DNA of 64,000 nucleotides from Mya arenaria (taxonomy: Eukaryota), in assembly GCF_026914265.1 (NCBI RefSeq), contig NC_069133.1:48545355-48609354 (forward strand). Reading direction: 5' to 3'. Each line of letters opens with the position of its first letter. The first letter of the stretch is position 1. The position numbers were made by a program, and so were the translations under genes. The notes below the pieces were generated by a model. The model was not told the DNA's origin, made no database searches, and was given only the letters and a program-made list of their open reading frames with translations. This document shows, in pieces, positions 1-42,177 of the stretch.

Positions 1-984
1 AGTCTTTGCATCAATACAAAATATATTTACTGATAATGCAATGATCGTTTATTCCCATCAAATGCTGTCTGTATTTGAAAGTCATATTGTTATCTTAACG
101 AATGAAATATAGAACATGCAATTATAACCTTGAATATACTAAAACGAACAGTGCTAAAACTGTCACAGCACCCAATATTAACTAAATGGCAATATTTAGA
201 ACAAAGGGACATAGCTCTAAATGTCAATAACTATCTCATTGGCGGATCTATGAAATAAAATAAAATGGGTCAGAACATAGGGGTACGAAATGGATCATTT
301 TTAAAAGAATTTCGACGTGTTAAGAGTGAGGTGGTGGCTTACATCACTTGTGAATAATAGGGATTAATATGCTAGTTAACACTGTACAAACTTTCAGTTC
401 TCTAAGATTATGTAGGATAACGGATGCATGAGCTGTGCAGTAACGAAAAAAGGAACTCAATGTAATAAGTACATTTTCAATTAACGTTTTATATCATTCT
501 GCGTGATTTTAATGTAATATCGTATTGTAAGGACACGTTTTGTTCAGGTATTTACACTAACAAAAAAGGTGACGAAATCTACTCCAATAAATATTAGCTC
601 ATACGCCTGTGCAATCATGTTATCATGTGTCCTAAAGTAAACTTCAACCGACCAAAGGACTGTAATCTATTCATAAAGCTGTTCAACCCATATTTGTAGT
701 AATCGAAGTACTCTAACAAGGATGTAAAACATATTATCAGTTATTTTACTATTTTATTATTTATTAGAAAAAAACAGTATTTCATTATTAATGGAATAAG
801 TCTTAACTTGTTATAGAAATATCGGATTTTATCTGTTTTCGGTTTCACTTATTGTATGTAATCACGTGGCTAATGAAGGAGTGTTTTATATAGGGTATAA
901 CTTATTTATCATAGTGGCTTTACCCTTTGGATACATATCAGTTACGAAAATGGTCGTATAAACGCAGTAAGTTGATGGAAGTTT

Positions 985-1740
<756 letters not shown>

Positions 1741-2572
1741 TATGCACTATATTGACTGTACACCGCATGTCTATTTTAGTTCTAAATCGTATGTTGTAAA
1801 ACAATACTTAGTCAACTATAAGAAGAAGAGAAAAGGTTATCAAGTGTATACTATTTCCTTGAGAGACAGTTGTTCCATACTAGAATACACTCTTTTTATA
1901 TGTATATGTTCGGTTTATTTATTTCAGGTTTTTGTTATTTGATATTGAGAGGTGAGATTCAAGCTTAAACCTTCCTTCTCGCTTAGGTCATTATTTATGA
2001 TATAACTTTATCATTGCGCAATCATCTATTATCTAATCTTACGCACAATCAGTATTAAAACGCGACCACAAATAAACACAGCCTTCCAAAACACATATGT
2101 TTAATGATCATGTCATCTTCTTCTTCGTATACCTTTTTCCTTATTAGCTTTTGCTTCTGGATATATGTATGACCGAAAATATAACATGTTCAGCTGATGG
2201 TATAAAAGTGGCTAATTCTTTGGTCAAAGTTAGCCGAAAATTTAAGTGATCCAATGAGTTTCATTAACCAATCAAATCCTTTAAATGTGCAAACTAAGCG
2301 AAATATATTTCGTGGATAACTTAACCACGTTTTATATAAATGGCTGCAGTAGTCCATTGACCAAATAGTCGTCTTCATTTGTAAGGAAGATCACTTTGAA
2401 AGAAGTAAAGTATATAATAATTTTAATTATTGTATATATAATATGATTGTAATTTGTCCTTAAGATCGTGAAAAGAAGCCAGTTGGCAAATAAAATAGTA
2501 TAAACTAGTGTGATTCCGTTTAGTAGTGTACGGTGTTCTAAAAGCATTCGTCAATTTTTCAGGTTGACATGA

Positions 2573-2617
2573 ATGGCCGGATCAATGGTTCTACTTATCT
2601 GCATACTTCTACGAGTA
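2573..2617 (+). CDS. Gene A (death-domain receptor paralogue A), first coding exon: signal peptide MAGSMVLLICILLRV, phase 0
   Basis: ATG followed by a hydrophobic core, then a GTAAGT donor at 2618. Conserved with gene B at 32155-32199. An acceptor-like TTTTTCAG sits immediately upstream, so a 5' UTR exon may lie further upstream. Confidence 0.5.
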
Positions 2618-3016
2618 GTAAGTATGCGAATACGTTTCTAAGCCACCGTAGGCTGTCATACAGTATTTTCAAAGTCCGGCTATTTGTCCGTCCTTAACGT
2701 CTGTTACAAAAATGTGTCTGCACAAAGACTCTAGAATGGCCTCGCCTAGAACTATCAAAATTGAATAATAGGTTTGGGGATCACTAAGTCAAGGGAGTTT
2801 TCAATAGTATTATGATTTGGATATAACATCATTACAAATGCATTCAAATAAATTTAAATTTGTGTAATAATAACAATGCAGAAAATAATTGATTGTATTA
2901 AACTACTATCTAAAAAAAGAAAATTTGAGACATGAAACTTTTATGACAATAAAGCGCAGTGTAACTTAATCATTATTAACGCACAGGTTGAGTTCTGGCT
3001 TTCAAATTTATTTCAG

Positions 3017-3278
3017 TTTCTGGAGGTCGGTGGAGATAGAGTCTTTCGACCTGTGGACACTAAGTGTATCCCAATATGTTCAAATCGGAAAGTGAAAGAC
3101 TGGGCCTTCAACTGTGATGGGGACAATACCACATGTGACTGGCAGTGTTCGGCCCAGAGGAAGGCGTGTCCAGAGGGCCTCACGTATCACTGCGCGGCTG
3201 ACTACGCGGACTTTGAACTACATACCGGCAATATCATCCACTTGGAAGAATGTGCGCTGGAAAAGCCATGCAAGAGAG
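3017..3278 (+). CDS. Gene A exon 2: Cys-rich ectodomain, part 1 (...FNCDGDNTTCDWQCSAQRKACPEGLTYHCAADY...)
   Basis: TTTCAG acceptor at 3011-3016. In frame with ORF 3053..3283. AG|GT donor at 3279. The 3' half is ~95% identical at protein level to gene B exon 2. Confidence 0.7.
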
Positions 3279-3730
3279 GTTGAATAAGAAAAAAATCCTT
3301 ATACATAACACCATGGCAGGGGCGAGTCCAGGATTGGGCGTTAGAGAGGGTGGGATAATTAAGAGGCAAAGCCTTTTGACTGCGCCCTCAGAAAATTACA
3401 AGAAAATGTAAACAATTTCCTATCCGAAATATCGCATTTGGGGCGTATTTTATTACTCTTTTACTATATCGAAATAAAAAATAAACATGCGGATATTTAA
3501 GAGGGGGCGCGCGCCGGGTTTACCCCTGGATCCGGTAGCTCTTACCTTCTATACTTCAGCAGTATTTACATTTAAGCTGTTGCTGTTCCACAATATAACC
3601 TGTTGCTACGGGTTTAATAACAAACAATGTTTTATAATCCGTATAGGGTGATACTTTAGTGAGGTGTTTAGATAATCAACGCAACATTTAAGAAATGTAT
3701 TTCAAATTTCATCGAATGTATTTGTTTCAG

Positions 3731-4081
3731 GCGAAGAACCGAGTATTACTCTATACGCCAATGGAGAAAAACTACCTCCGAACGAGGCAAAGATTAATTG
3801 TATTTCTTGCTCAAACAAATATTTCTACAACAGCCAAGACGGCAGATTGTCCTCGTCATATAGCAGGTGTTTCCAAGAAAAGTTTAACAAGTGCATTCCG
3901 GAGGACAACAAAATTGACTGTGGTGAGTCGTGGCTTAAGCGAACGGAGAGTGATGGCTACTGCAGATGCGATGCGAGGAGAGGGTTCGCTCCTGAGAATG
4001 AAAACATCGACTCCATGTGCTTCTACACTGACGCACATTGTATGTTAAAGAAATGTCCGTCTGCACAGGAGCTGGCTTTAA
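3731..4081 (+). CDS. Gene A exon 3: Cys-rich ectodomain, part 2 (117 codons, 12 Cys)
   Basis: TTTCAG acceptor; A|GTAAGT donor at 4082; phase 1 to 1. Collinear with gene B 33157-33507, same length. Confidence 0.75.
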
Positions 4082-4577
4082 GTAAGTGCTTTTAAGGAAA
4101 ATTGTATTTTGTTTTATAAAATACAGAAAGAGATATAGACGAATAGTGATTGAAGATTGTATATTATATAGATAAGCAAACTCATCTATTTTTAAGTTTT
4201 AAGCACTTTGGAAGTACGACGAGCATTTAGTATGCAATGCTGTCGGGTAGTTTTTCGGTACAGGAAGACATTCAGTAAAATCACAATTAAGCAAAAAACA
4301 AATTATTTGAAGAGCTTTATAATGATCTTATAGGCATCAGGGGGAGCCCAGACCGGTTCCGTTCTGGTGATAGATCGGGTCCACGGAGTATGCTACCGTC
4401 GCAAGACCCGTTTCAAATAAATAAATGTGTGTGTTTTATATAAACGATATCTCAATATAAATGTATATACATGTTATCACTGTGTGTTGATTTGGTGACT
4501 GTGTGTGTCATGTTACAAGCTAATAGATTAAAGTTTTGACCTACTAGTTCAATTAATTAGTCTTTGATTTCTCCTAG

Positions 4578-4659
4578 ATTACTCCTGCATAATCAACTGT
4601 CCAGACGGTTATTACAGGACGGACGATTCAGATGCATGTGTTGAAAGAGCAAGCGCAAC
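4578..4659 (+). CDS. Gene A exon 4: Cys-rich ectodomain, part 3 (NYSCIINCPDGYYRTDDSDACVERASA)
   Basis: CTCCTAG acceptor; GTAAGT donor at 4660. Same 82-nt length as gene B 37393-37474. Confidence 0.7.
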
Positions 4660-4979
4660 GTAAGTACATCGTCTAATTCAATCTTAAGGCCATCTGAGCC
4701 CGTTTTAGGTCTGTGAATAGTTGCTTGAATTGACATCTCCTCTAGAACCGTATGGTCTGTTTTTATGAACCTTGACATTAATCATCCTTATTGGAGCCTC
4801 AATCCACATTGCTTTAACAAAACAATTACATTTAAAACTCATAGAAATCTCTTAAAATCATTACCTCTGAAGTCAATAATAAGTATTTAGACCTTTTATA
4901 AAAAATGCTAAAATTAGTATATCCAACAACATTCCCGCTAGAACACGGGACCTGTTTTACCTATACGACTATAATTTTC

Positions 4980-5530
4980 TTTTTCATAATTTATAATACC
5001 TTGGTCAAGTCAGTATACGCTTGTTGATTTTCTCGTACGTATGATACTTGTGTCTAGTCAGTAAAAGTGTGTTAAATTTCTTGTGCTTATGATGCAGTTG
5101 TATTTTCAGTAAATGTGAGTTTATTTCTTCGATTGTTAAATACATTTGTCTAAGCAGTAAAAGAGTAATTTCCTCGTTTGCATGATACAGTTATCTGGTA
5201 TGCAAATGTGTGTTTATCACCTTGAATGTTTAAAACTTTAATGTTTGGTACGTATGTCTAGTCAGTTAGCGTCTGTCGATTTATTGAATGTTTGATACTT
5301 TTGTCAAGTCAGTTAAAGTTTATTGATTTACTTGTAGGAATGATACTTTTGTATAGTTTGCAAACGCTAGTTGACTTACTCATATGTATGGTACGTTTGC
5401 TTAGTCAGTTAATGCTATTTGATTTCCTCGTTTATTTTACACTATTGTCTCTTCAGTACACGCTTACTGGTATTCTCGTATGATTGATACTTTTGTCGAG
5501 TCAGTAAACGTTTGTTGATTTCGTTTTAAT
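4980..5530. repeat. Intronic satellite with a ~48-bp unit, about 11 degenerate copies, in intron 4 of gene A
   Basis: Recurring ...gtc[ta]agtcagtaaa[ac]g[ct]ttgttgatttcctcgtttgtatgatac... at ~48-bp spacing. The same family is in the homologous intron of gene B. Confidence 0.8.
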
Positions 5531-5830
5531 TATTGTATGAAACATTTCCGCGTATAGCGTATATTCGTTTGTTCCTCTATCTTCTCACCAAACTTACCTG
5601 AAATATTTAGTAGTACAGATGTTTGAAAAACTTCACAATGTGTTCTAAATAGATATACATATTTAACAATGCAAATCATGTTATCATTTACTTGATATCA
5701 TCTTGAAAAAATACACAAATATTTATTCCAGTCCATGATATCTGTAACTTTAAGGCATAAACCATCCTTGATTTATGATACACTTCACTGATTAAATTTA
5801 TTTAAAGTTTTATCAGCTTGATTTGTTTAG

Positions 5831-5916
5831 AGCAAAAACGAAGCCACCAACGACAGCTTCTTCAACAACTGATCAAACATACACTCAGTCTACAATTGAT
5901 TCCACAACCGGAAAAG
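5831..5916 (+). CDS. Gene A exon 5: Ser/Thr-rich stalk (TAKTKPPTTASSTTDQTYTQSTIDSTTGK)
   Basis: TTTAG acceptor; G|GTGGGT donor; phase 2 to 1. Same 86-nt length as gene B 38829-38914. Confidence 0.65.
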
Positions 5917-7196
5917 GTGGGTTCTTTTGGATACTTGTAGTCGAATCTAATGGTGTTCTTCAAATTGAAACATATACGAGTAAACGTGTAATTAAAGGTT
6001 ACGTAAAAACACCATCAATGATGGCTGGAATCCTTCTGATTGAAGCATCCTTTCTCAAGAACTATCGCCTTAAATGACTTCAAAAACGGAAGTATTCAAA
6101 TGCTATGTTAAATCCTTAGTGCAACCTAGGATTAAATAATTTGAGAAAAAAAAATATCGTGCATGTTACTATTATAATTGAGTCTCATATGATGTCTGAT
6201 AATTTACCGAGGTCCACGCGATACGATACTTTAGTAAAAAGATATTTTAAGAAAATAAACCTGAAATTCTCAACTGGATCACCGACTCACAATATGCCAA
6301 TGAGGTAGATATGTGGGTGGAGCATAGCGCTTTGCTAACAGTACCTGAACAATCGCCGGAACAGTCTAAAGAAGATACTAGAGAAATACTGAACATTTTC
6401 AAATCGATTTCGCATAAAGAAATTAAGCTCCTGTTTTTAAAATAAATGTGATGTAAGAGTTTTCGAATGAAAACTTAATAATGGTGTTTAGTATAAAATC
6501 GTAGATTTCTTTACGCTCGTGTTTTTTTGTGCATGACGAGATAAAGGGTGGCAAATCTAAGATACCAAAATCTGGAACCCTTCAGCAAATGTTGATATTT
6601 GCTCAAATATCGTTTTTGAAGACAATTTTAAATAGCGTAAACAGCTTTGTTGTTGCGAAATTGGTTGTTTACCATCATTATGTGATGTTATCAATGTTTG
6701 GTTAGCACGTCAAAATATATTATTGTTGAAGCAAAGTCGTGGCGGTCTAGTGGTCCAAAGGTTGATTATATTGGGTTATTTTTTCTTGACTTCTAAGAAC
6801 ATCTTTCTAGTTAAAAACTGTAAATCATTAGGTTTTCAGAAAGTCACGTGATAAGCAAATTTCTTATTGACGTTGTGTGCGATAAATCATAAACATATAC
6901 TTAGAGTATCTTTCGGTTTTGTTGCATTTTTTAATCGAGATAAATCCATTTATTGGGGTTAAAAAATGTAAAAGTTGAAAAGAAGTCATTTGGATATACA
7001 AACAATCAAATAAGTTTACATATTTAAATCATAATGAATCCTTTATACTTAAATAACAACAACAACAACATTTCTCCAAAAACAAGTTCCTTTGAGTGGC
7101 AAGCATGGAAATGCATTTGTTCCGAAATAACTGAAAATGTGAATATGTGATTTAATGTATATTTTATTTATGGCCTTTTTTTCTCATATAATCTAG

Positions 7197-7292
7197 AGAA
7201 AGTTGTCATCAGCTCGAAGAAGACAGACAAAGTAACAGGAGCAGAATTTGCACCATTTGTCGTCATAATTGCATGGCTATTGATAACGATAT
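7197..7292 (+). CDS. Gene A exon 6: transmembrane helix (...EFAPFVVIIAWLLITI) followed by a basic stop-transfer stretch
   Basis: ATCTAG acceptor; T|GTAAGT donor. A 16-residue hydrophobic stretch. The gene B homologue is 39698-39805. Confidence 0.7.
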
Positions 7293-8469
7293 GTAAGTGA
7301 AAACAACTTTCTCACGGTTTATCCAGGTGCCAGTATTCGTTTATAGTTTTTGTTATTGTAGTAAAGTTATTGTATATGCTTCATAATTTAACACTTATGA
7401 CAATGGTATCGGCCACATTTCTTAATTTTCGACAAATACCCATAAATTACCTAAACAGAACATTTTAGCGGAACAGTATTTCTTATTTGCAGTTTTTCGA
7501 CACGCGTAAGCTTTGATCTAATCGAATAATTTGAAGTATCACATGTTAGAATTCAACATATATTTCTAGTCAATGAAATTGCACATAGGCAGTCATAAAG
7601 TACTAGGCGTAAACATTGAGAATTTCAACTTTCGCGGGTGTTTTAAACGTTTGCCTACTGCCACTCTTCTAATTCATACTCTCTGCGTCAAATTTTGCGT
7701 TAAAAATGTGCCAGCCAATGAGTTTGTATTTTTAGCTATCTAGATGACCAGAATTAATATTTGATAAAAAAGAGCTCATTCGCTTCGTTTTATCAACCCA
7801 TTCTTAGTCATCAAGATTCGACTTCATGCCATCTTATTATAATAAATAAATATTCGCGAATATTTTATTTCGGGAAATGATTTTCCATAGCAAAGCATGC
7901 GCGCGGGAGGTTTAAAAAAGAGAAAGATGAATTCCGCGCCAAGCATATCCACAACTATTATATATTTTCATTTTTAGAAAAACACTTCTCTACATTTTAC
8001 AACACGCGATAATGTATAATCTTAATACTCTTTACGGCAAATTAAATGGTCCCTCCTTGTAGTAAAATGTATTAAATCCATAAAATGTATCATATAGGTC
8101 AACCACAGGTGATAGTAACATAGCCGGGATTGAACGTTTGTTTTTACTTTTAGTTTTGGCCGAAATTTGAGAGCCATCTAATTAATTTATTAATGTTGTA
8201 AAGCCGAATTCATTGGTCAGCAATGAAACAGTCCACTCTTCTTGCATTCAAAGCATAACCGGTGCGCGGTCAAGATCAACATTGCAACACGGGTTTTGAT
8301 AGTGAAAGTAGATACTGTAACAAAATTATTTCGGATCGGATAGAGACTCGTCTAAATCATAATGGTAGGAATAATATTTTAAGCTACTTTGTTGACAGGC
8401 CATTGTTCTCTTATCCCGCTAAATACATTAAGTACTGTATATATAGTTGGTTTATATCATTATTTCTAG

Positions 8470-8574
8470 GTTGTCACAAAGGAAGGATTTTGAAAGAAAA
8501 AAACGAAAAAGGCCTTATGAAGGCAGCCAGATTAATCGTGAAATTAGCACTCTGCCAACGCTCTACTAGTTTAA
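8470..8574 (+). CDS. Gene A exon 7: juxtamembrane cytoplasmic segment (CHKGRILKEKNEKGLMKAARLIVKLALCQRSTSL)
   Basis: TTTCTAG acceptor; A|GTAAGT donor. Same 105-nt length as gene B 41645-41749. Confidence 0.7.
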
Positions 8575-8914
8575 GTAAGTTTTTATCAATTAAAAGTGTA
8601 CCAATTTATTAACGTTTTTAACAAGGACTTTATTTCTTTTTCAAAACTCCGCAAACTTTTTGAACAATCCTCGTGAAACGTTAACAGCAACTTTTTTGTA
8701 AACCCTTGATTAGCGAGGTTGATTTCTTTTAACCACTGGGCCTATATGTTATCATAACTAAATTACTTATATTTATGTAATAATAATTTTAAAGGAAATG
8801 ACGACTCTTGAGTGTGTCGTAGTTTTGCTTACTGGAAGTGCATACATCGAGATTGGTATATATATATATATCATAACATCTTCGTAAGCTTTGTCTCTTT
8901 GTTCTGCAAAAAAG

Positions 8915-9031
8915 TGGAAACCTCCGGCGAAGCTGTTAGTACACACAATGCCGAGTCACAGCAAAACACGGAGGAGGACAAACAGAGTCGAGTGAAACTT
9001 CTTTCAGGCGTCGAACAAGAGGGTAGGAAAG
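8915..9031 (+). CDS. Gene A exon 8a: cytoplasmic linker (METSGEAVSTHNAESQQNTEEDKQSRVKLLSGVEQEGRK), symmetric exon, phase 1 to 1
   Basis: AAAAG acceptor (weak); G|GTAACT donor at 9032. Homologous to gene B exon 41937-42014. Confidence 0.5.
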
Positions 9032-9295
9032 GTAACTGCAATGATATTTATTTCTTAAAAATGTGTTTTAAAGTACTTTAAAAACAAAGAATCCGAAACA
9101 AACGATAAAAACGTGTGGGTCAAAACTGGGACTATATGTTATTTAAACTAAACTGCTTATATTTATGTAAAACATTTTTAAAGGAACGACGACTCTTTAG
9201 TGTGTCGTAGTTTTGCTTAATAGAAGTGCATTCAACGACATTGGTATATAGTCAAACCATCTTCGTAAGCTTTGTCTCTTTGTTCTGCAAAACAG

Positions 9296-9412
9296 TGGAG
9301 ACCTCCGGTGAAGCTGTTAGTACACACACTGCCGGGTCACAGAAAGAAACGGAGGTGGACAACCTGAGTCGAGTGAAACTTCTTTCAGGCGTCGAACAAG
9401 AGGGCAGGAAAG
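9296..9412 (+). CDS. Gene A exon 8b: duplicated copy of exon 8a (…ETSGEAVSTHTAGSQKETEVDNLSRVKLLSGVEQEGRK), 117 nt, phase 1 to 1
   Basis: ACAG acceptor, stronger than that of 8a; G|GTAACT donor at 9413. The ORF is intact. It could be spliced in tandem with 8a, alternatively to it, or be a pseudo-exon. Confidence 0.5.
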
Positions 9413-9942
9413 GTAACTGCAATCATATTTATTTTTTTAAAAATGTGTTTTAAAGTACTTTAAAAACAAAGAATCCGAAACAAACGGAAATGAACTTGTG
9501 GTTCAAAATTTTGAAAATATACTGTTTAGAAAGATTTATTCATACCGACAGTACGTCAAAATTAACTAAATATACTCGTATAGCATATATTGAAGTCGTC
9601 AATGCACACATTTGTCCCTCTTATGAGAGGATTGATCCGAAAATAGCATTTAAAAAAAACTAGATAAAAGTTCACATAGTCGCATGGTTTTGACAGATCT
9701 GAACAGCTTCATTAATTTATTTATGTTTTAGTATTTGGCTCTATATTTTTCATCGTTCAGTTTATAAGGGACTACAGTTTGTTGTTGTTTTTCCACAATA
9801 ATCATGCCATATTTATAATGCAATTACCTGTACTGAATGTTCCTAAACATTGTTTGTTTATAGACTGACTTACGTAGTACAAACGATTGTCTTGAAAAAC
9901 AATATCATTTGATTTTTGAAAGAAGCACAATTCATATTTTAG

Positions 9943-10218
9943 CTCCCTGGAAGAAAAAAAGTCCAAGTGACATAGAACTATTGCACGTTGCGTCGCTAAT
10001 TGGAAAAGGCTGGAGAGGTTTGGGTGCTCATCTGGACATCAGAACCTCCCTATTAGACCAAATAGAAAAAAATAACTGTGGCCATAAAGATATTGTTTAT
10101 GAAATGCTGAGAGAATGGCGAAATTCCAGCTCTCAACCAACATTGAGTCATTTAGAGGATGCAATTCGTGAGTCAGGCGTTGTGTTTGACTGGGACTTTG
10201 TAAAACAGGATATTTTAG
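9943..10218 (+). CDS. Gene A exon 9: death domain (...IELLHVASLIGKGWRGLGAHLDIRTSLLDQIEKNNCGHKDIVYEMLREWRNSSSQPTLSHLEDAIRESGV...)
   Basis: TTTTAG acceptor at 9937-9942; G|GTAGGT donor at 10219. Typical death-fold signature: a conserved Trp in helix 1, LxxxW/L-R in helices 3 to 4, and ...L..AL... in helix 6. The paralogue is 42330-42614. Confidence 0.75.
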
Positions 10219-10506
10219 GTAGGTCTCCCACTTTCACCTTTTCTTTAAATAAACCATATGCCATTGTTTGTTGTTGTTGTTTTTTTCCTTTTTGTGACCA
10301 CATTTCAATTAATTTTATAGTATTGAATAATATTAAGTTTATTTACTTTTCATCCAAGCATTATATTGTCATATTTTTATTTTGCTTTTATTGTTAAATT
10401 CTAATTGTTTTTCCTTTCAGTAAGTCTGTATCATATATATATATATGTAAATATATACTAGTATTTACCAATACTATTCATTATTAATCAATTCTTTAAA
10501 ACAAAG

Positions 10507-10730
10507 ACAAGCGTCACCAAAATGCTGCCTTGAATAATACTCCGGACGAGGGTGAAAAAAACGCTGCCACGAATGATATTCCGGACGAGGGTGACAAAAA
10601 TGCTGTCTCGGTTGATAATGAGATGAACAACACTCTCAATGCTAGAGTAGAGGCACATTTATCTGGTAGAAGCATAGCCAGTTCTTGCAACATAGCCAGT
10701 AGAAGCAGGACAGACGAAACACAATTTTAA
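10507..10730 (+). CDS. Gene A last coding exon: acidic tail with two copies of the N-x-[ST]-P/T-D-E-G-x-K-N-A motif, stop at 10728-10730
   Basis: ACAAAG acceptor. The frame continues into ORF 10530..10730. The 3' UTR 10741-11000 is homologous to 43886-44110. Confidence 0.7.
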
Positions 10731-13700
10731 CAATACTTCTCAGTTTGCATATGTTGTGTAAGAGTACTTAAGTTATTACTGAAGTTACCGTCGCAGCGTT
10801 TGAAACTTACTGAGTCCAAGGATCCCTAGGACACAGCATTTTTTGGAGGGACTAAATAACCTCGAAGTCAGGTGTCCATATTGTGCAATATTGTTTTGGC
10901 AGAAAAATAGATTGAAACCCAAAATACATGTTAAGTTCAATAAGAATTAATTAACAATCGATAAGAAATTGTATGTTTGTGTCCCTTCTGGATCCCTTGG
11001 AAATATAGTTAATTTCGACCATTGCGGTGTAGAGCAAAGACTTTTCTTAGATTATATTTAAAGGAAGCTGCATATGTTATAAAATTACGTTGTCAAGAAT
11101 TGTTTCTTATATACAAAAATATATATCATAATTGAATTGTGGGAAAATTTGTGAATGCAATATATCCTTCATTTGCTTCAAGGGCGGAGTTTTTTTATCT
11201 GGTGATTGACTAATCACGTAGAAACACTAAAACTATTAGTTAACGATATAGTTTCATTGTTATAAATGGAATTTAAATAACTTTAGAAGAAAACAACCTG
11301 CAAGTTGGCAAACTATTCATTGACGTCAATGATGTGTATGTGTCCATTGTCAGATTGATGTCTGACTTAATAAAACGTGAGCGAGACCCTTATGTACGGG
11401 GCAGTGTATCAATTTGTTTTGGACTATTGCCTATATCCACCGTGTGTGTATCAAAGTTGAAGTCTGAAACTGCTTCTTGCCGTCAGTCAAACAGCGGTTC
11501 CGTTGTGAAATTGATCCAAATTATCATTATATGATATAACAAATATATTTTAATACTCATTTCAGTTTTGCTAGATGCGTTTGAATGAAGATTAAAAGTA
11601 TCTTCCATGGCCGCTCGTGTAAGATAGGTTCATTCCAACCCGAGCGTGAGGTTTACCGAGTTTCCGCAGAACACCCTCCCCGAGGGCTCAGGCGAATCTA
11701 TCCTACCCGATTAGCCATGAAAGATACGTTTTCTTTCACCTCAGTTAAACTAAATAAAGTTGAAACGTACTATTTCACTGGAATCCTTTTGTGCGTAGTG
11801 AAAATAGTTCGCGTATAGATATGTGATAATATGTTGTTTTCATAGATATGCGTGCAGTAATTCAAATATTTAAATAGTCAAGTCGTTCTTTAAATAGTTC
11901 TAAGGGGATTGCAACATAATTTCTTGAAAGTAGCGTTAAAACCTTTTTGTGTCAGTTAAAGTGAGGAATGATTTATTTGGATTTTAAACATTACCACTAG
12001 ACAAGGTTCCCATGGTGCTACAGACGACGATCTTTTACAAGGGAGATAATTGTGTGATGACAATACAAAATAAGTTCCAAATGGGTCCTTATTTAACTTT
12101 GCCCGTGGGCAAGATAAGGATTTCCAGCATGCCCAAATCTACTTTTCTTGGATTGGAGAAGAAAATATCTTAATATGTGATTTATCTACACTTAATTCAT
12201 TATCAATCATATTGCCTCTCCTCAAAAGTCATCATTTTATGCAATCAATTTGACTGAGTATTGTTCAGTGAATTCTCCTTCATGTATGATTAAATTATAC
12301 AAACATATAACTCATTGATATTTACACCATGGCTGTGAAGTTTGGGGTGTAAAAAGCATATATAAAGAAATAGTGCAGTTGAAGTTTTGTAAAGAAAGGC
12401 ATTAGAACTCTAACTCAAGTAAATATATACTGTTTTTGTTAACATAAAACTCGGTAGAACACCATTAATGACTAGAAGAGTTGTAAATGTGATAGAGCAT
12501 TGGTTTAACACTTTACATATCAAATGTTCCAAACAGTTTATAGTTATTGTTTATTGTTAAGAGATTTAGACGCTTACTGTAAATTAAGGACAATAAGTGC
12601 TAGAATTTGAAGCCGTTAGGCATTATAATCTGAATTTATTTCAAGTTTAAATATTCATTTCATATCGATTCAAATCCTGTACCTGTTAAATCTGCACTCT
12701 CACAGATTGAACATTTTGACAACATTTTTAATTTTTGGTCTTAGAACGATCCAATTTATGCGAAATGCATGTAAACCAGTAATATAAGACTGCTGACAAA
12801 ACACTAGATTGCAGTTTGTTATATTTAAGTTCAAAAATTAATGTTTTATGCATTTTTTCTAAAAGCGTTAGTAACGGTTTTAGCCATAAAGCATTACTTT
12901 TTGGAACAGAAATATGAAAATCTGCGATCAGATCTTATTTCAGCAGTCTTCTATCACTGGTTTACAGATATGTACGCAAACAAAGACTCATTCCAAGACA
13001 AAGAATAAAAAATGTAAAAACGGTAAATCTGTGAGAGTGCATCTTTAATGATATAAACTGCCAAATATGTAATGCTTTTAGAAGATGACTTTAATTTCCT
13101 TTTTAAATCTTCTCAAGAGCGAGGTTGTGCACACAAACTGGTTAAAAACCCCAGTAAATTTACATTTTACTGACCGTTTCAACGCGGTACCTAACAATCC
13201 TTGATAAACATACCTAGTTTTTTTATATATATATAGTATATATGCACTGTGCTGCTTGTGGGCTGTCCATGTTTCTTGTTTGTGATTTTATGTTCTATAT
13301 TTTTGGCGATTACCCAGTGTCATTAACTCGGGTTTATGTTTAAACTGTTTGCCACTGAGCTGGTTTCTGTAGCTTTTCGCATGAATATTAATAGCATGAG
13401 TGAACCAAAGATTTTTGGACTCATTACAAATACGAACAAAACTATGTGTAAAAACTCCACCTTTTTATATTTAATAAGTTTATATAAAATGTTCTAATGG
13501 TACTGGTAACACAAACTCCTAACGGTCACCATATACTGTATAATATATATTTATAATGCGACTTCATGTACGTATATGTATGTAACTAGTTATTGATTAA
13601 CATGTTTATTATATGACTTGCCTAGGAAAATAAGGACAAAGACCAACTAACATTTCATTTGTTATTGTTGACATATACTTCTTTTCATACATCATTGTAT

Positions 13701-23300: not shown

Positions 23301-25235
23301 TCCACATGAAATCTCGATTTCTTTTTGGATTTTAAAACATTTTTGATAGTTGAGACATGAACTATGTTTTTTATTGTAAATAAAATGTTTTATGTCGGAC
23401 TATTTTCTTTCCTGCGGATTAGGCACCTAATAACACTCAATGTAAATTCTTCGCTCTAGGACACGAGAATGTGTATAGAAGAAACTTTAACCTATATTTC
23501 GACCGTAATTGGGTTATGTTATAAATAAAATCTCAAATTCGTAATTATTTTGTATCAAATTTATAAAACTGGTCATTTAAAATCGATGAAATGACGTTTT
23601 TAAATGAACTCGTTTCATACATTTGATACAAAATAAACACTCATTTGAGATCCTCTATATAACGGCAAATAAATCCTTAAGCCCAAAAGTTTGTGACTTA
23701 GTAAAAAAAAACTTACTTCAAAGGGCATTTATTTGAAATACAATTCAGCCAGCCTTGTAATGCAGCATGTGACGTATGACTTTATTTCTGTAATTGTTGA
23801 CAGCATGTGTTACAGGGTTATCCATAGATCATGTTTCAATTCAGGGGTGTAAATATACAATAATATCAAATAAACCTGAAGTATACAATTTCTATCAAAG
23901 GGTACCATTAAAACTGTGTTTACAGTTTACAGTATAAGCAAACACTAAGGTTTCAACTTATTTACAGGTGAGGCTATTACCTCACAGTGGGGTTTATAGA
24001 ACGAAATATGCAACAATGCTCTCCGAAAAGGGACAAAAAGAGACTACTTGATGTACGACCTCCTTGACCAATTGTTCACCATTACTAACCTGGCGAACTC
24101 CATGGGAGACAGGTATTGGGCTTCTCCGCCCTGAAGAGGAAAATAAAGAAAAAGAAATAATATCTAGATTACTGGCGATACTTGAAGGTAAATACTGTAT
24201 TTCAAGTGTAGATTAATAAATACCATTTTAGGTATGGCTGCATAAAATATAAGCATGAGACAGAAGTCAAGACTCATGATTACCCTTTTAAAAGTCATTG
24301 TGAAAAATAATCTACCTAGGACTTAGCTTACCATACACAGAGTTCAGCATTATAACACTCTTCTCATAACTCTGCCTTTCATAAGTGTGTTTTCTTTTTG
24401 AAAAAAAACTTTCGTTTTTCTTATGATAAGAACGTTTGTGATTTCCGTTGAAGGACATTTACCAAAAATATGTTTTTTTTGCAGATTATGTGATATTACG
24501 GAAAATGCTGCCATGACGTTCTCTAAAGTAGAATTAAATTGGTCCACCACTGAAAGCAACACGTATGCGTGATAACGGTTGAAACATAACCGACTGTGAA
24601 GTGTTCTAGTGACTGCAATTATATTTTATACCCAATATGATAAAATAGTGTAAATTTTATTATACTTGGTATTAATATTTGAAATGCAGAATTAATTGAG
24701 CAAGCTTTTTGTATGGTTGTTCACATGTCTTTTTATTCCATTTTTTCTCCTATAAATCATTGCGCACATACAATTAAAATCAATTAAACTCCATGTGACA
24801 TAATGTATAAAAATACACACGTTCACTTAATCGGGCGAAAAATTGTGTACGGGTGTTTACATGTAAGAACAATACTTTGGCTGTACATGATTATCTCGTG
24901 ACATTTCATTTCGATTCAACCTAGCCTGCATGCATCGTATTACGCTGTTAAGGCCAAGCAAGTATATTTATTCGTTGGCTTTACAGGCACTATTCTTTGA
25001 CGAAAAAAAAGCATTTGTAAAGTCTCTAAAAAGAGACGAAACTAATTTTGCACTCATACGGGGAACATTCAAGTCGATCAGCTCGTGTATTTGTCAGAAC
25101 CTTGCCAGGCAGAACCTGAAACGAGTTCCTGAGCCAGAAAAATAACCTTATAAAGGTGGTGTAGTGAAGCAACTCTGAGACCGGATGTCCGTTAAACTCG
25201 CGAAACTGATGGCTCTGCACCTTAATCACATCTTG

Positions 25236-26165
25236 CGCCTGTACCAGGTCCCACGCTTGTACCAGGTCTCACACATGTACCAGGTCCCGCGCATGTACCA
25301 GGTCCCACGCCTGTACCAGGTCCCACGCCAGAACCAGGTCTCACTGTACCAGGTCAAGCGCCTGTACCAGGTCCCACGCCTGAACCAGGTCCCAAGCCTG
25401 TACCAGGTCCCACACCTGTACCAGGTCTCACGCCTGTACCAGGTCCCGCGCCTATACCAGATCACTTACCTGTACCAGGTCCAGTGCCTATACCAGATCA
25501 CTTACCTGTACCAGGTCCAGTGCCTATACCAGATCAATCGCCTGTAGCAGGTCCCGTGCCTATACCAGATCCATTGCCTGTACCAGGTCCCACGCCTATA
25601 CCAGGTCCCGTGCCGATCGCTTGTACCAGGTCCCGTGCTTATACCAGATCCATCGCCTGTACCAGGTCCCGTTCCTATACCAGATCCATCGCCTGTACCA
25701 GGTCCCGCGCCTGTACCAGGTCCCACGCCTATACCAGACCCCTCGCCTCTACCAGATCCCTCTCCTGTACCAGGTCCAACGTCTGTACCAGGTCCCGTGC
25801 CTATACCAGATCATTCGCTTGTACCCGATACCTGGCATGTACTAGATCCCGCGCCTGTACCAGGTCCCACGCCTATACCAGACCCCTCGCCTGTTCCAGA
25901 TCCCTCGCCTGTACCAGTTCCCGTGCCTGTACCAGTTGCCTCGCCTGTACCAGGTCCAACGCCTATACCAGGTCCCGCGCGTTACCAGGCCGCGCACCTT
26001 TACCACATCTTGTGCCTGTAACAGGTCCCACGCCTGCACCAGATCCCACGCCTATACCACGTCGTGCGCCTATACCAGGTATACAGTGTACCAGGTCCTG
26101 CACGTGTACTAGGTCCTTCGTATTTACCAAGTCATGCGACTGTACCAGGTCACGAGCCTGTACCG
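25236..26165. repeat. 18-bp minisatellite (CCTGTACCAGGTCCCRCG)n, about 50 copies
   Basis: Seen directly. Every frame gives periodic Pro/Val/Gly or Tyr/Gln/Val ORFs on both strands, which I read as repeat artefacts. It abuts the Gypsy RH remnant. Confidence 0.9.
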
Positions 26166-26189
26166 GGTTAGAAGGCGACTAGCCGACCT

Positions 26190-28151: not shown

Positions 28152-28781
28152 CCACAAACATATATTCCCATAACGTGCTGTATGTATTTGAAAATCCTAT
28201 TATTATCTTAACGAATAAAATATAGAATTTGCAATTATAACCTTCAATATACCAAAAAGAACAACGCTAAAGAAAGCAATTAGACGTCTATATTTGGAAC
28301 AAAGAGTTTTTACCTCATTTTAATGTCAATAACTTAAACCAAAGGGTGTGTAATTTAGGGGAACAAACCTTCCCTCAGAACAGAAATTTAAATAGTTTAA
28401 CATGTTGACAGGGTACATTTTGGTACTCCTCCAAGGCAAATGTAATAATTTCTAGGCCGAAAAGGGACATTTTCAGAGTATTTTATTACTTATTTTGCCA
28501 GGAATTGATATAAAAAGTTAATTTGGACGATTTAAAGGAGGTAAATATCTATTATACGCTAGTACAGAAATTTTCCTGACAGTAACTTATGTTAGATAAC
28601 GGATGCATGAGCTCTGAAGTAACAACGAATTAAGCACAATGTAATAATCCATTTACAGTCTACTTTATATTAATGCCTGAGGCGACTATAAATTAATTGC
28701 TGTTTTTTTATCCCCGCCCGCCCCCTCTTTTTCCACCGCCCCTTAAATTTTATGACTCAAATTAAAAAGTTGAACAATGGT

Positions 28782-29515
28782 CTGTACTTGCGCATCGGTC
28801 AGGAACTGTCCGGGAACGGCGTTTAATCATACCTACGGTGTCGAATGAAAATTGTTATTATCCTGTTCGTTGATCGTCTAGAAACATATATATGGTCGAA
28901 TTATGTATCCACGGCGAGCGCGACACACGAGTTATGTGTATACAACAAGCGCGACACTCGGTTTTGGACACACGGCCAGCGTAATACACGCGTTATATAT
29001 ACACTGCGAGCGCGACACATGGGTTATGTATACGCGGCGATCGCGACACACGGGTTATGTATACACGGCGATCGCGACACACGCGTTTTGTATATACGGC
29101 GAGCGTGACACACGCGTTATGTATACACGGCGATCGCGACACACGCGTTTTGTATACACGGCGAGCGTGACACACGCGTTATGTATACACGGCGATCGCG
29201 ACACACGGATTATGTATACAAGGCGAGCTCGACACACGGATTATGTATACACGGCGATCGCGACACACGGGTTATGTATACAAGGCGAGCGTGACACACG
29301 GATCATGTATACACGGCGATCGCGGCACACGGGTTATGTATACAAGGCGAGCGTGACACACGGATTATGTATACACGGCGATCGCGACACACGGGTTATG
29401 TATACACTGCGAGCGCCACACATGGGTTATGTAAACACGGCGAGCCCGTGATCTGTATTTGCGCATCGGTCAGGAACTGTCCGGGGACGGCGTTTAATCA
29501 TACCTACGGTGTCGA
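28782..29515. repeat. Composite insertion private to block B: 62-bp direct repeats (28782-28844 and 29453-29515) flanking a 31-bp tandem array of ~17.5 copies (28903-29452; unit ggcgatcgcgacacacgggttatgtatacac)
   Basis: The direct repeats are 60/62 identical: ctgta[ct]ttgcgcatcggtcaggaactgtccggg[ag]acggcgtttaatcatacctacggtgtcga. Array units alternate between the GAGCG and GATCG variants. The whole 28660-29740 segment is absent from block A at ~480-600. Confidence 0.85.
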
Positions 29516-30138
29516 TGTGTAACATTCAAATGTTACAAAGGAATAATGTTATGAAGCATCTATATGGTCCCTAATGAAATAAAAAAGGGCTTATACATAT
29601 ATTCAACGGTAAAACAGACGAACATCTAAGAACAAAAACATATGTCACCTCCGCCCAAATTTAAAAGAATTTAGCAAATCATTATATTGGCCTTATTGTA
29701 AGCAGTTCTTTGGATAAGGTATAAATTTACAATTACAACTCATGTTACGAAATCTGATCGATTAAATTTGAGCTCACACGTCTGTGCATTCATACTGTCA
29801 TTTACAGAGGTGTACAGGTCGCTAACAAACCAATCCCTATACAGTCATCCGTATAAATAGATATGAAGTAGAAAATACTAACAAGGAAGTAAAAATCTGT
29901 TTTAAGTTAATGTTCAATTTTATTATTTAAAGGAGAAAAACAGTCTTAAAAAGTTTCATATTATAAATTAATGGAATTAAATTATGTTTGTTATTCATAA
30001 GAACATTGTCGGATTTAACCTCTGTGCCGTTTCCCGTAATTGGTCTTATGTAGGAGTGTTTATATGCAGGGTATAACCTATCAATCATAGTGACTTCATT
30101 CGTTAAATGGTTGTATAAACGCAGTAAGTTATTTAAAG

Positions 30139-30141
<3 letters not shown>

Positions 30142-30209
<68 letters not shown>

Positions 30210-30218
30210 GTAGTAGTG
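30142..30218. repeat. (ATT)n microsatellite, the short orthologue of the 985-1740 array
   Basis: Seen directly. Same flank as in block A: gtataaacgcagtaagtt. Confidence 0.9.
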
Positions 30219-32154: not shown

Positions 32155-32199
32155 ATGAACGTATCAATGATTCTACGAATATGCCTAATTCTACGAGTA
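32155..32199 (+). CDS. Gene B (death-domain receptor paralogue B), first coding exon: signal peptide MNVSMILRICLILRV
   Basis: Conserved with gene A 2573-2617. GTAAGT donor at 32200. TTTCAG immediately upstream. Confidence 0.45.
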
Positions 32200-32692
32200 G
32201 TAAGTATGATAATTAGTTCCTAAGTCCCCGAAGGGTGTCATACAATATTCTCACAGTCTGTCCATCCGGACGTCCGTGTAACCGGTCTTAATTCCGTTAG
32301 TTCGGCTGTTACAAAAATGTGTCTGCACAATTACTCCTGAATGGTTTCACCTAGCTCTATCAAACTTGAGTGGTAAGATGACGAGTAGATGACCCCTATT
32401 GTTTTCGAGGTTACCAGGTCGAATGTTATGATTATAGAATTATAATATAAATTAACGGCCATCCGTTCGTCTATGCTTTGGATTTAAAATTATTCCAAAT
32501 GCATTAAAATGATGAAGTAATACTTTGAATGTATAATGATAACAATACAGCTAATGATCGTAATGATTGTATTTAACGGTTATCAGAAAAAAGAAAGCTT
32601 GAGACATAAAAGTTTAATGACAATAAAGCGCAGTGTTACCTTAAACTAGTATTAATGCACAGAGTGAGTACGGGTTTACAAATTTATGTCAG

Positions 32693-32945: not shown

Positions 32946-33156
32946 GTTTGTAGTAACGAACTCATACGTAACACCTTGCCTGCTCTACTGTATTAGGATT
33001 TACATTCTAAATGTCGCCGTTCTTCAATTCAAACTGCTGCTAGGGGCTAATAAGCAAACATCAATGTTTTATATTTTGTACTAGGTGAGAGGCTCAGTTG
33101 ATATACGCATCTTATAAAAAATGTATTTCGATTCATATCGAATGTATTTGTTTTAG

Positions 33157-33507: not shown

Positions 33508-33639
33508 GTAAGTGTTTTTAAGGAAAATTAAACAAATATTGTTATAAGATATTATATATCATATAGATAATCAAACTCGTATATTTATATGCATATAGCA
33601 TTTTCAAAGTACGATGGGCATTCAGTATGTTATGCATCC

Positions 33640-37302: not shown

Positions 37303-37311
37303 TTATTATTA

Positions 37312-41936: not shown

Positions 41937-42014
41937 AGTCACAGGGAGACTCGGATGAAAACAACCAGAATCGTGTTAATCTTCTTACACACGTCGAACA
42001 AGAAGGCAGGGGAG
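41937..42014 (+). CDS. Gene B exon 8: linker (KSQGDSDENNQNRVNLLTHVEQEGRG), single copy
   Basis: TTTTTTAAAG acceptor; G|GTAACT donor. 78 nt against 117 nt (x2) in gene A. Confidence 0.6.
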
Positions 42015-42177
42015 GTAACTGCAATAATGTTTATTTTTTCAAATAATTGTTTGAAAGTACTTTCAAAACGAAGAAACCGAAACGAAAATCTTGTCGTTCG
42101 AAATGTTAAAGACATATTGTTAAGTAAGATTTATTTATACCAACAGGCAGTCGAAATTAGTTATATATAATTTATAT

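Follow-up and report, generated by a model that had tools for sequence, protein, structure and literature searches.

We analysed a 64,000-nt stretch of Mya arenaria DNA (the window) in which a receptor gene, here called gene A, contains a tandem direct repeat that doubles its exon 8. The repeat unit is ~385 bp long (381-390 bp, depending on indels), its copies lie head-to-tail, and they are ~88% identical. The duplication is genuine, lineage-specific and fairly young, and it is an ordinary kind of event. We give about an even chance to a reading in which this lineage-specific duplication left the two exon copies, 8a and 8b, as independent, non-exclusive in-frame exons, the balance between them being set by two opposing cis features (see below).

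Gene A could be rebuilt as an intact 11-exon receptor with a signal peptide, a Cys-rich ectodomain, a transmembrane (TM) helix, exon 7, exons 8a and 8b, a death domain and a tail; the 586-aa ORF was complete and each of the 20 splice sites was intact. Pseudogenisation of the 5' end was considered and rejected, given that an upstream ATG/signal-peptide exon homologous to that of paralogue C (see below) is present. The parts of the gene other than exons 8a and 8b are as follows:

2573..5916, + strand: 5' half of gene A, Cys-rich ectodomain and Thr/Ser-rich stalk, aligning end to end with paralogue C
2573-2617, + strand: exon 1, ATG and signal peptide, aligning with paralogue C
3017-3278, + strand: exon 2, aligning with paralogue C
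3731-4081, + strand: exon 3, aligning with paralogue C
4578-4659, + strand: exon 4, aligning with paralogue C
5831-5916, + strand: exon 5, aligning with paralogue C
7197..7292, + strand: exon 6, stalk and TM helix (…GAEFAPFVVIIAWLLITI), phase 1-1 (hydropathy scan, frame check)
8470..8574, + strand: exon 7, basic juxtamembrane segment CHKGRILKEKNEKGLMKAARLIVKLALCQRSTSL, phase 1-1 (homologous segments in paralogues B and C)
9943..10218, + strand: exon 9, death domain, 276 nt, phase 1-1 (Pfam, acceptor phase scan)
10507..10730, + strand: terminal coding exon, AAG acceptor aaaacaaag/AC, with ~3 copies of a 39-nt repeat

The signal peptide in exon 1 (MAGSMVLLICILLRV) and the single TM helix, which is the hydrophobic stretch FAPFVVIIAWLLITICC of exon 6 between the ectodomain and the death domain, were each recognised by hydropathy alone. 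The death domain matched Pfam PF00531 (E=7e-11, 42.5 bits against a cut-off of 22.6); its nearest solved structure was the FADD death domain (E=3e-5), and its PDB matches included the death domains of FADD, NRADD and RIPK1. The general plan resembles that of the TNFR superfamily and of p75NTR/NRADD-type receptors, i.e., a type I single-pass protein with a Cys-rich ectodomain, a flexible linker and a cytoplasmic death domain, the latter being closest by sequence to those of FADD, NRADD, RIPK1 and TNFRSF25. Unlike the TNFR superfamily, the gene A ectodomain matched neither TNFR_c6 nor any other Pfam family at E<=10 (Death was the only family matched in the gene), none of 10 family members matched TNFR_c6, and relatives of the receptor were found in Mya arenaria only. 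As judged from sequence, gene A belongs to a family of single-pass receptors restricted to Mya arenaria, in which a Cys-rich ectodomain and a TM helix are followed by a disordered acidic spacer, then by a death domain and finally by a repeat tail.

Two paralogues have one exon 8 each: paralogue B, which lies in the window and is collinear with gene A, and paralogue C (RefSeq XP_052773062), found by searching with the gene A ectodomain exon. The exon order TM, exon 7, exon 8, death domain and tail is independently present in paralogue C and reads open in gene B, whose sole exon-8 homologue is:

41937..42014, + strand: gene B exon 8, 78 nt, phase 1-1, acceptor ttttttaaag/AG, donor G/gtaact

This exon is shortened. 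Relative to the A-type exon it lacks the initial 39 nt; it uses a different acceptor with the same donor, and gene B has no segment that matches the acceptor -3 base of the A-type exon 8. The length of the exon-8 spacer varies freely among the paralogues (twice 117 nt in A, 78 nt in B and ~102 nt in C). An AF2 model of paralogue C, built on a 10-sequence family alignment, was unusable (mean pLDDT 38, pTM 0.23); its exon-8 segment had pLDDT 25-34 and no secondary structure, which says little in so poor a model.

RefSeq proteins were found for paralogue C and for neither gene A nor gene B. The sole annotated product of gene A is MAR_015998 in GenBank, which includes exon 8b (its residues 139-177, a 100% match) and leaves out 8a. 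It is a partial MAKER model from which the TM exon and the death-domain exon are also absent, so that its exon choice is unreliable and carries little weight. Nearly all introns of this receptor family are phase 1, and gene predictors can therefore drop exons without a break of frame; the deposited model, with no TM, 8a or death-domain exon, is probably wrong. Word-indexed searches of a 5.8-billion-protein set, made with 8a, 8b and the death domain, with the gene B chain, and with the ectodomain, TM and exon 7 of gene A, returned MAR_015998 alone for gene A, no product with the 8a peptide and no gene B protein. An exact look-up of P0001 and P0002 (the latter being paralogue C) in the contig collection gave no match, and the supplements of PMC11978232 did not mention MAR_015998, the '015998' strings in them being unrelated numbers.

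The original prediction placed a 381-bp unit, duplicated head-to-tail, at 8740-9485. The repeat search, self-blastn and global alignment all agreed on the duplication and on its location; its limits proved wider, 8735-9508, and the 381 bp hold for the spacing of the core but become 381-390 bp once indels are counted. Self-blastn of the window aligned 8735-9125 with 9125-9508 (87.8% over 393 columns, E=1.6e-126), far beyond chance, and the repeat search gave a 191-nt core at 8871-9061 and 9252-9442 (91%, spacing 381 nt) flanked by blocks with spacings of 382-390 nt. The two units, delimited by self-blastn and global alignment, are:

8735..9124, + strand: duplication unit 1, the 3' part of intron 7, exon 8a and the 5' part of the next intron
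9125..9508, + strand: duplication unit 2, with exon 8b

The junction at 9124/9125 joins ...GGGTCAAA to ACTGGGAC, with microhomology of at most 1-2 nt, and 3' of 9508 the intron sequence is collinear with gene B. About 180 nt of intron upstream and ~95 nt downstream of exon 8 were co-duplicated, which together with the head-to-tail layout points to a genomic event and not to retroposition. The 8a/8b unit pair was not among the repeats that Tandem Repeats Finder listed with default settings, presumably because there are just two copies and these differ by indels. An origin of the unit from a transposable element was rejected, as the window holds no further copies and gene B has a collinear single copy. 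That the duplication is confined to gene A, as had been claimed, was borne out by paralogue B, which matches the unit once, and by paralogue C, which has one exon-8-like segment. The unit copies differ by ~10% and by five or six indels, one of them a microsatellite length change. The duplication postdates the split of A and B, given a unit divergence of ~0.10 against an A-B intron divergence of 0.11-0.19 and a dS of 0.3-0.4. Bivalve genomes are highly heterozygous, and the second copy might be a collapsed or mis-joined haplotype instead of real tandem DNA; we regard such an artefact as extremely improbable, since the ~10% divergence with five or six indels is far above allelic divergence, the junction is unique, and the assembly is a chromosome-scale PacBio/Hi-C one polished with 10x reads.

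The duplicated exons, established by alignment and frame check, are:

8915..9031, + strand: exon 8a, 117 nt, phase 1-1, acceptor ctgcaaaaaag/TG, donor AAG/gtaact
9296..9412, + strand: exon 8b, 117 nt, phase 1-1, acceptor ctgcaaaacag/TG, donor AAG/gtaact

They are identical at 106 of 117 nt and encode the peptides ETSGEAVSTHNAESQQNTEEDKQSRVKLLSGVEQEGRK (8a) and ETSGEAVSTHTAGSQKETEVDNLSRVKLLSGVEQEGRK (8b). Several parts of the original prediction stood unchanged here: both 117-nt copies are open in phase 1-1 (with 2 nt left over on the 5' side and 1 nt on the 3' side) and keep the AAG/GTAACT donor, the variable peptides had been quoted exactly, and the exons do lie between the TM helix and the death domain, with the TM exon and exon 7 upstream and the death-domain exon downstream. 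The better acceptor attributed to 8b is real at position -3 (C against A in 8a), but 8a is weakened rather than disabled, because AAG acceptors work elsewhere in the family, namely in gene A exon 10 (present in the GenBank model) and in gene B exon 8. A YTNAY scan found no canonical branch point 15-60 nt upstream of either acceptor, a result that is equal for 8a and 8b and hence uninformative. All exon-8 sites are GT-AG and U2-type, with no U12-type /RTATCCTT donor, and the intron between 8a and 8b measures 264 nt. Every combination keeps the frame of gene A: 586 aa with both exons, 547 aa with either one and 508 aa with neither.

Between 8a and 8b we counted three synonymous changes, all in the flanks of the exon, and eight nonsynonymous ones, all within codons 11-23. 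The exon divergence of 9.4% equals that of the intron (~9%) and the overall dN/dS is 0.78, so most of the signal is neutral. Across the 25 flanking codons the copies differ only by the three synonymous changes, and neither copy has a replacement in the motif that is conserved in paralogue B; in simulations the lack of replacements in the C-terminal 14 codons, defined as conserved a priori, had P=0.027, and the observed clustering of replacements had P=6e-4, although this second test was post hoc. That the replacements are confined to 13 central codons gives moderate evidence of past translation of both copies and suggests that both were exposed to selection on the protein. Polarised with B and C, two derived residues fall in 8a and four in 8b, which makes 8a the less derived copy at the protein level. 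Retention of an ORF after 11 substitutions is expected under neutrality with P=0.58 and is uninformative.

The introns around the exons carry a perfect 18-nt palindrome that was duplicated with them, together with the arms of a second predicted helix:

9066..9083, + strand: palindrome TTTTAAAGTACTTTAAAA, copy 1, 35 nt downstream of the 8a donor
9448..9465, + strand: palindrome copy 2, 36 nt downstream of the 8b donor
9172..9185, + strand: upstream arm of a predicted 14-bp helix, in the intron 5' of 8b (MFE helices; inverted repeat I8)
9433..9446, + strand: partner arm of the 14-bp helix, downstream of the 8b donor (MFE helices)
42050..42067, + strand: gene B version of the palindrome, TTTGAAAGTACTTTCAAA, in the same position relative to the donor

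The gene B palindrome is conserved through a compensatory change of T..A to G..C. In gene A the two copies bracket exon 8b with complementary 18-mers, 213 nt upstream and 36 nt downstream of it, and the partition function of a 1.37-kb fold gave their pairing a probability of p>=0.99 in the core; the pairing persisted in a 2.7-kb fold. The 14-bp helix 9172-9185/9433-9446, present in the MFE structure and also in the 2.7-kb fold, encloses 8b as well. The duplicated palindrome is thus predicted to loop out exon 8b. These helices are AU-rich equilibrium predictions, and if the 264-nt intron is spliced out during transcription, copy 1 could be lost before copy 2 has been synthesised. An Rfam search of 8300-10000 at E<=1 gave no match, so the conserved block is not explained by a known intronic RNA gene. 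A search for docker/selector pairs in 1.4 kb of the AT-rich intron yielded 39 inverted pairs, none of them convincing except the palindrome itself; the best docker candidate, 9616-9635, was only 70% complementary over 20 nt, ordinary among the 39. In silico, no site present once showed strong complementarity to selectors in both units, and the palindrome and the 14-bp helix enclose 8b alone.

In the favoured reading, that of independent and non-exclusive exons, two cis features would act in opposite directions. The weaker acceptor of 8a, with A at -3, would work against 8a, and the helices of 18 and 14 bp, which enclose 8b with both its splice sites, would favour skipping of 8b. Transcripts with both exons would then encode a spacer extended by 39 aa, in which the RVKLLSGVEQEGRK motif occurs twice; transcripts with 8b alone would arise if the AAG acceptor causes 8a to be skipped, and 8a-alone transcripts would also be possible. 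The effect on the protein would be one of spacer length and local charge between the juxtamembrane helix and the death domain, with no switch of structured modules. The proposal in the original prediction, that alternative linkers arise through mutually exclusive or cassette splicing, seems only partly plausible.

A competing explanation, unlikely but by no means negligible, is that 8a is a pseudo-exon, a relic that stays unspliced within the intron and has so far escaped a stop codon, and that only 8b with its CAG acceptor is recognised. It would agree with the junction straight to 8b, without 8a, in the only annotated product (MAR_015998), with the A at -3 of the 8a acceptor, with the lack of the 8a peptide among the 5.8 billion proteins, with a dN/dS of 0.78 and equal divergence of exon and intron, and with an open frame that 11 neutral substitutions would leave intact 58% of the time. 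The same MAKER model, however, also skips the TM and death-domain exons, AAG acceptors function elsewhere in the family, and 8a is the less derived protein (two against four derived residues); moreover, the three flank differences in 25 codons are all synonymous and the B-conserved motif is unreplaced in both copies (P=0.027, a priori). Rather unlikely, in our judgement, is that the duplication is functionally inert however it is spliced, i.e., a neutral structural variant that provides no adaptive isoforms in a gene whose cytoplasmic half is decaying or unconstrained. Between A and B, omega was 0.96 for exon 7, ~1 for exon 8 and 1.14 for the death domain against 0.31 for the ectodomain, so that constraint may be relaxed across the cytoplasmic half. 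The death domain of gene A is 52% identical to that of C whereas that of gene B is 84% identical, the gene A TM exon is 12 nt shorter than that of B and starts with a charged residue, and the free spacer length and the finding of a RefSeq protein for C but not for A or B point the same way. Against decay stand the intact 586-aa ORF and 20 splice sites, a death domain still recognised by Pfam at E=7e-11, and flanks free of replacements in both exon-8 copies; besides, omega near or above 1 is also seen in fast-evolving immune receptors.

Strict mutual exclusivity, with one of 8a or 8b in each mRNA and two isoforms that differ in 7 spacer residues, is very unlikely. Homologous exons of equal length and phase with co-duplicated intron flanks are its typical substrate (PMC6071210, PMC9013439), the clustering of replacements in a 13-codon block is what functionally diverging variants would be expected to show, and a weak 8a acceptor together with looping out of 8b could approximate either/or use. 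Nothing in gene A seems to enforce it: double inclusion and double skipping stay in frame (117 = 3x39), so nonsense-mediated decay cannot act on such transcripts; the 264-nt intron imposes no steric block; the sites are all GT-AG and U2-type, with no U2/U12 incompatibility; and no single docking site with two selectors was found, the best one (9616-9635) reaching 70% over 20 nt. Duplication of the whole palindrome, moreover, is predicted to loop out one exon and not to create competition. A looser version is distinctly unlikely too. In this version the sites that bracket 8b, made by the duplicated palindrome, would cause 8b to be skipped or back-spliced into a circRNA each time the helix forms, which with the AAG handicap of 8a would give quasi-either/or use. 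Similarly doubtful is the corollary that gene A represents an early stage (~10% divergence) of a 'whole-stem-loop' variant of the Ivanov-Pervouchine route (see below), one that would do without a classical exclusivity mechanism.

Mutually exclusive clusters derived from tandem exon duplication are known in Drosophila Dscam1, 14-3-3zeta and Mhc, in human ATE1 (7a/7b) and in SCN exon 5a/5b (PMC9013439, PMC6071210). Exons 8a and 8b resemble them in being adjacent homologous exons of identical length and phase, with co-duplicated intron flanks and canonical splice sites kept, and in having their differences concentrated in one sub-segment of the exon. In contrast to those clusters, the gene A exon has a length that is a multiple of three, a long intron separates its two copies and the search revealed no docker/selector competition, so that nothing seems to enforce exclusivity. 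The gene A pair is also young (~10% divergence) and occurs in one paralogue of one species, whereas the majority of well-supported substitution events are ancient (PMC9741552). It codes for a probably disordered spacer, while no portion of a folded domain is involved.

In the model of Ivanov and Pervouchine, duplication of one arm of an intronic stem-loop gives birth to competing RNA structures: only arm a' is duplicated, and a' and a'' compete for one docker (PMC6071210). Gene A is similar in that a self-complementary intronic element was co-duplicated with the exon, creating new long-range complementarity that would loop one exon copy. It differs in that both arms, the complete 18-nt palindrome, were duplicated, which opposes local hairpins to one cross-pairing; this cross-pairing would loop 8b only, with no competition that also silences 8a. 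Exon 8b also resembles circRNA exons flanked by inverted Alu pairs, as 18-mers of perfect complementarity flank it (at 213 nt on the 5' side and 36 nt on the 3' side) and a 14-bp helix encloses it; the arms in gene A, unlike those of Alu pairs, are very short and AU-rich, and their pairing is predicted in silico. Exon looping or circularisation by complementary flanking intron sequences is known, inverted Alu pairs around circRNA exons being an example.

The duplicated exon of gene A is a further case of a common event, since roughly a tenth of animal genes have been reported to carry a tandem exon duplication (PMC9013439). In practical terms, the deposited model MAR_015998 is probably wrong, and the phase-1 introns of the family let predictors lose exons in frame. 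If both copies are spliced, gene A would be a datable young case of an in-frame exon duplication that alters the spacer between membrane and death domain of a receptor, and would put to a concrete test the idea that a duplicated intronic structure is enough by itself to generate alternative splicing, with the single-copy paralogues as built-in controls for the 8a/8b duplication.

Comparison of the window with itself by BLASTn delimited two collinear death-domain receptor paralogues, gene A (about 50-12500) and gene B (about 28160-45400), and placed a tandem duplication inside gene A (8735-9125 against 9125-9508; 87.8% identity, 393 columns, E=1.6e-126). Inspection of 8400-9900 and a repeat search recovered its core as a two-copy direct repeat of 191 nt (8871-9061 and 9252-9442, 91% identical, spacing 381 nt), flanked on both sides by further repeat blocks spaced 382-390 nt apart; the pair was not listed by the TRF run. 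Global alignment of units 1 and 2, the duplicated blocks, gave 339 matches, 34 mismatches and 21 gap columns. The original prediction of a 381-bp head-to-tail unit was right as to the duplication, but its limits are 8735-9508 and the spacing varies from 381 to 390 nt owing to indels. The unit junction reads …GGGTCAAA joined to ACTGGGAC…, with microhomology of at most 1-2 nt.

Gene A was rebuilt from ORFs, splice sites, hydropathy and homology, with exon 8 present as two copies, 8a and 8b.

Exons of gene A
2573-2617: e1, ATG and signal peptide
3017-3278: e2
3731-4081: e3
4578-4659: e4
5831-5916: e5
7197-7292: e6, transmembrane (TM) helix
8470-8574: e7, basic juxtamembrane segment
8915-9031: 8a, 117 nt, AG/GT-bounded, in unit 1
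9296-9412: 8b, 117 nt, AG/GT-bounded, in unit 2
9943-10218: e9, death domain (Pfam PF00531, E=7e-11)
10507-10730: e10

The ORF is intact, all introns are GT-AG, and from e2 on they are in phase 1 throughout, except at the e4/e5 junction. The solved structures nearest to the e9 domain are the death domains of FADD, NRADD and RIPK1. As predicted, each unit carries a 117-nt exon of phase 1-1 (two bases over at the 5' end, one at the 3' end), open in frame and followed by a GTAACT donor (AAG/GTAACT in both). The peptides are ETSGEAVSTHNAESQQNTEEDKQSRVKLLSGVEQEGRK for 8a and ETSGEAVSTHTAGSQKETEVDNLSRVKLLSGVEQEGRK for 8b, and the acceptors, ctgcaaaaAag/ and ctgcaaaaCag/, respectively, differ solely at position -3. 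Every defining feature of the tandem exon duplication class was found in 8a/8b, which is a textbook example; tandemly duplicated exons have been reported in about 10% of animal genes (PMC9013439).

The closest relative found with the ectodomain exon is paralogue C (P0002; RefSeq XP_052773062/3, LOC128211946), on the same 70-Mb chromosome and not encoded in the window. Its protein shows a signal peptide, a Cys-rich ectodomain, a TM helix, an e7-like and one e8-like segment, a death domain and a tail; this is the layout inferred for gene A, so that the exon order is independently supported, as is the earlier placing of exon 8 in a cytoplasmic linker between TM helix and death domain. The TM exon of gene A falls 12 nt short of that of gene B (39698-39805), its hydrophobic stretch having only about 17 residues preceded by GAE (…KVTGAEFAPFVVIIAWLLITICC); the TM helix in B and C is longer and glycine-rich. 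The ectodomain matched no Pfam family. An HMMER search of the ectodomain exon against 1.84 billion representatives returned 27 relatives, and every one whose source was looked up came from M. arenaria, as did all ten hits of a word-indexed protein search; judged by these searches, the receptor family appears restricted to M. arenaria. Gene A is comparable to death receptors in its mode of working, but by sequence its ectodomain did not qualify as a TNFR cysteine-rich domain.

A RefSeq protein was found for paralogue C, and none for gene A or gene B. The only database protein matching the exon-8 peptides was the GenBank model MAR_015998 (P0001, 'hypothetical protein, partial [Mya arenaria]'), which was built by MAKER with a Trinity transcriptome, bivalve proteins and SNAP (PMC10663159) and is probably mis-annotated. 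Its segments agree with the window at 97-100%, mismatches being confined to exon ends, and thereby identify the window as soft-shell clam genome. The model (3835-10727) joins e5 straight to 8b and 8b straight to e10, leaving out e6 (TM), e7, 8a and e9 (death domain); the frame survives the skipping only because the omitted exons are all of phase 1-1.

The duplication is confined to gene A, as had been proposed: gene B matches the unit a single time, and paralogue C has its one e8-like segment. Exon 8 of gene B (41937-42014) measures 78 nt and has another acceptor, ttttttaaag/AG. Relative to gene A (8796-8953 and 9183-9334), gene B (41860-42014) lacks about 158 bp, a stretch that takes in the acceptor of A type together with the exon's first 39 nt; the upstream ttttttaaag/ site serves as acceptor instead and the frame is kept. 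Since the paralogue C protein keeps the long form (…AGKAESTHSGESQQ…), the long exon is ancestral and that of gene B a deletion derivative. JC divergence between units was 0.12 in the upstream intron, 0.10 in the exon and 0.056 in the downstream intron, against 0.11-0.19 in adjacent introns between A and B (dS 0.29-0.51), which indicates that the exon duplication is younger than the gene duplication, yet not recent. A haplotype or assembly artefact is excluded by the divergence of about 10% and several indels; the assembly is PacBio/Hi-C, polished with 10x reads.

Several findings speak against both copies being real exons. They differ by 3 synonymous and 8 nonsynonymous changes (dN/dS 0.78), exon 8 is no more conserved between them than its introns, and an open frame would be expected to survive 11 random substitutions 58% of the time. 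The sole annotated model contains 8b and not 8a, but it also drops e6, e7 and e9, so its choice of exons carries little weight. Other findings speak for both being exons. Codons 1-10 and 24-38 differ at 3 sites, each time synonymously, and the 8 nonsynonymous changes are confined to codons 11-23. At least seven replaced codons within a span of at most 13 had P=6e-4 in 200,000 simulations (post hoc), and the absence of replacements from the C-terminal 14 codons RVKLLSGVEQEGRK, a segment set in advance by its conservation in gene B (RVNLLTHVEQEGRG), had a simulated P=0.027. Gene conversion would leave no such purely synonymous set of differences. Polarised with B and C, 8b has four derived residues (G13, K16, V20, L23) and 8a two (N17, K22), so that 8a is not the decaying copy. 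An AAG acceptor like that of 8a is in use at exon 10 of gene A (the junction is present in the GenBank model) and would be used at exon 8 of gene B. We regard it as moderately certain that both copies have been translated during most of the period after duplication.

Mutually exclusive splicing had been suggested for the pair, but on the present sequence data 8a/8b cannot be classed as a cluster of mutually exclusive exons, three of four enforcing mechanisms having been tested and found lacking. Frame incompatibility leading to NMD does not arise, as transcripts with both exons, either or neither are open (586, 547, 547 and 508 aa); the 8a-8b intron of 264 nt gives no steric hindrance; and sites are all GT-AG, without U2/U12 incompatibility. 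As for a docker/selector system, no convincing docker was seen in 1.4 kb of AT-rich intronic sequence, the best of 39 inverted pairs being 70% complementary over 20 nt. Usage would then be non-exclusive, with both exons included or each skipped independently of the other, and the -3A acceptor of 8a and a putative loop around 8b may act as opposing pulls.

This loop would arise from a perfect 18-nt palindrome, TTTTAAAGTACTTTAAAA, present at 9066-9083 and again at 9448-9465, in each case 35-36 nt downstream of the donor. Non-simple perfect palindromes of at least 16 nt number only nine in the 64-kb window, and this element accounts for three of these (8a, 8b and gene B); in the gene B copy (42050-42067), TTTGAAAGTACTTTCAAA, a compensatory double change, T..A to G..C, preserves the symmetry. 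Over 54 nt around the palindrome the A units are 98% identical, versus about 90% elsewhere. The palindrome may serve in splicing as an intronic element or bind a dimeric protein, or it may be a hotspot of templated mutation. Being self-complementary, it yielded on duplication two mutually complementary sites bracketing 8b. The ViennaRNA partition function for 8575-9942 predicted cross-pairing of the palindromes (core probability at least 0.99), with local hairpins near zero. A second predicted helix, of 14 bp (9172-9185 with 9433-9446), likewise encloses 8b; both helices were retained in a 2.7-kb context, and 8a has no equivalent bracket. In a published evolutionary model one stem arm is duplicated and the copies compete for one docker (PMC6071210), whereas in gene A one exon (8b) is predicted to be looped out and the other is not silenced. 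That the duplicated palindrome alone gave rise to regulated skipping of 8b, or to its circularisation, seems improbable.

Other features were noted in the window.

Repeats and ORFs outside the exons of gene A
983-1742, 25217-26168, 28897-29445, 38181-38778, also 4992-5522: long tandem-repeat arrays
46108-49244, minus strand: LINE-type retrotransposon ORFs downstream of gene B (Pfam Exo_endo_phos_2 endonuclease, E=3e-6; RVT_1 reverse transcriptase, E=4e-25)
50875-51240, plus strand: second ORF, RT-like by eye only
52347-55727, minus strand: a pair of long ORFs (414 and 114 aa), with …VAAFDFGTTYSGYAF… in the shorter one

The arrays upstream of the first coding exon of gene A are of tri- and hexanucleotides; the array between the genes is GC-rich (45%) and translates as a Pro-rich PVPGPTP-type repeat; gene B contains 31-nt and 48-nt arrays, the latter common to the corresponding intron of gene A. 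The 414-aa and 114-aa ORFs had no Pfam match at E<=0.001; we take the VAAFDFGTTYSGYAF motif to be reminiscent of HSP70/actin-like ATPase N-termini, such as those of HSPA12-type genes, which are expanded in bivalves. A 39-nt coding repeat (13 aa, …NAVLNDTTxER…) has about 3 copies in A (10506-10622) and about 22 in the terminal exon of B (42914-43885). The gene B frame from the death domain stops at 43809 and a different frame carries the conserved C-terminal motif, SSGVSTSSI…TDETQ (43799-43885), an apparent frameshift relative to A and C.

Between A and B, purifying selection acts on the ectodomain exon (omega, or dN/dS, 0.31), unlike the cytoplasmic exons (0.96 in e7, 0.69-1.09 in exon 8, 1.14 in the death domain). 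Identity to paralogue C was 93% for A and about 75% for B in the ectodomain exon, and 52% and 84%, respectively, in the death domain. It follows that the cytoplasmic half of gene A evolves fast or under relaxed constraint; the mosaic relationships suggest either gene conversion between the paralogues or a strongly accelerated evolution of that half. The spacer encoded by exon 8 is rich in E, S, T, Q and K and measures 2x117, 78 and about 102 nt in A, B and C; it had no secondary structure in the AF2 model of paralogue C, a model too poor to be relied upon. The duplication thus alters a flexible spacer in length and local charge, and is unlikely to swap a structured module.
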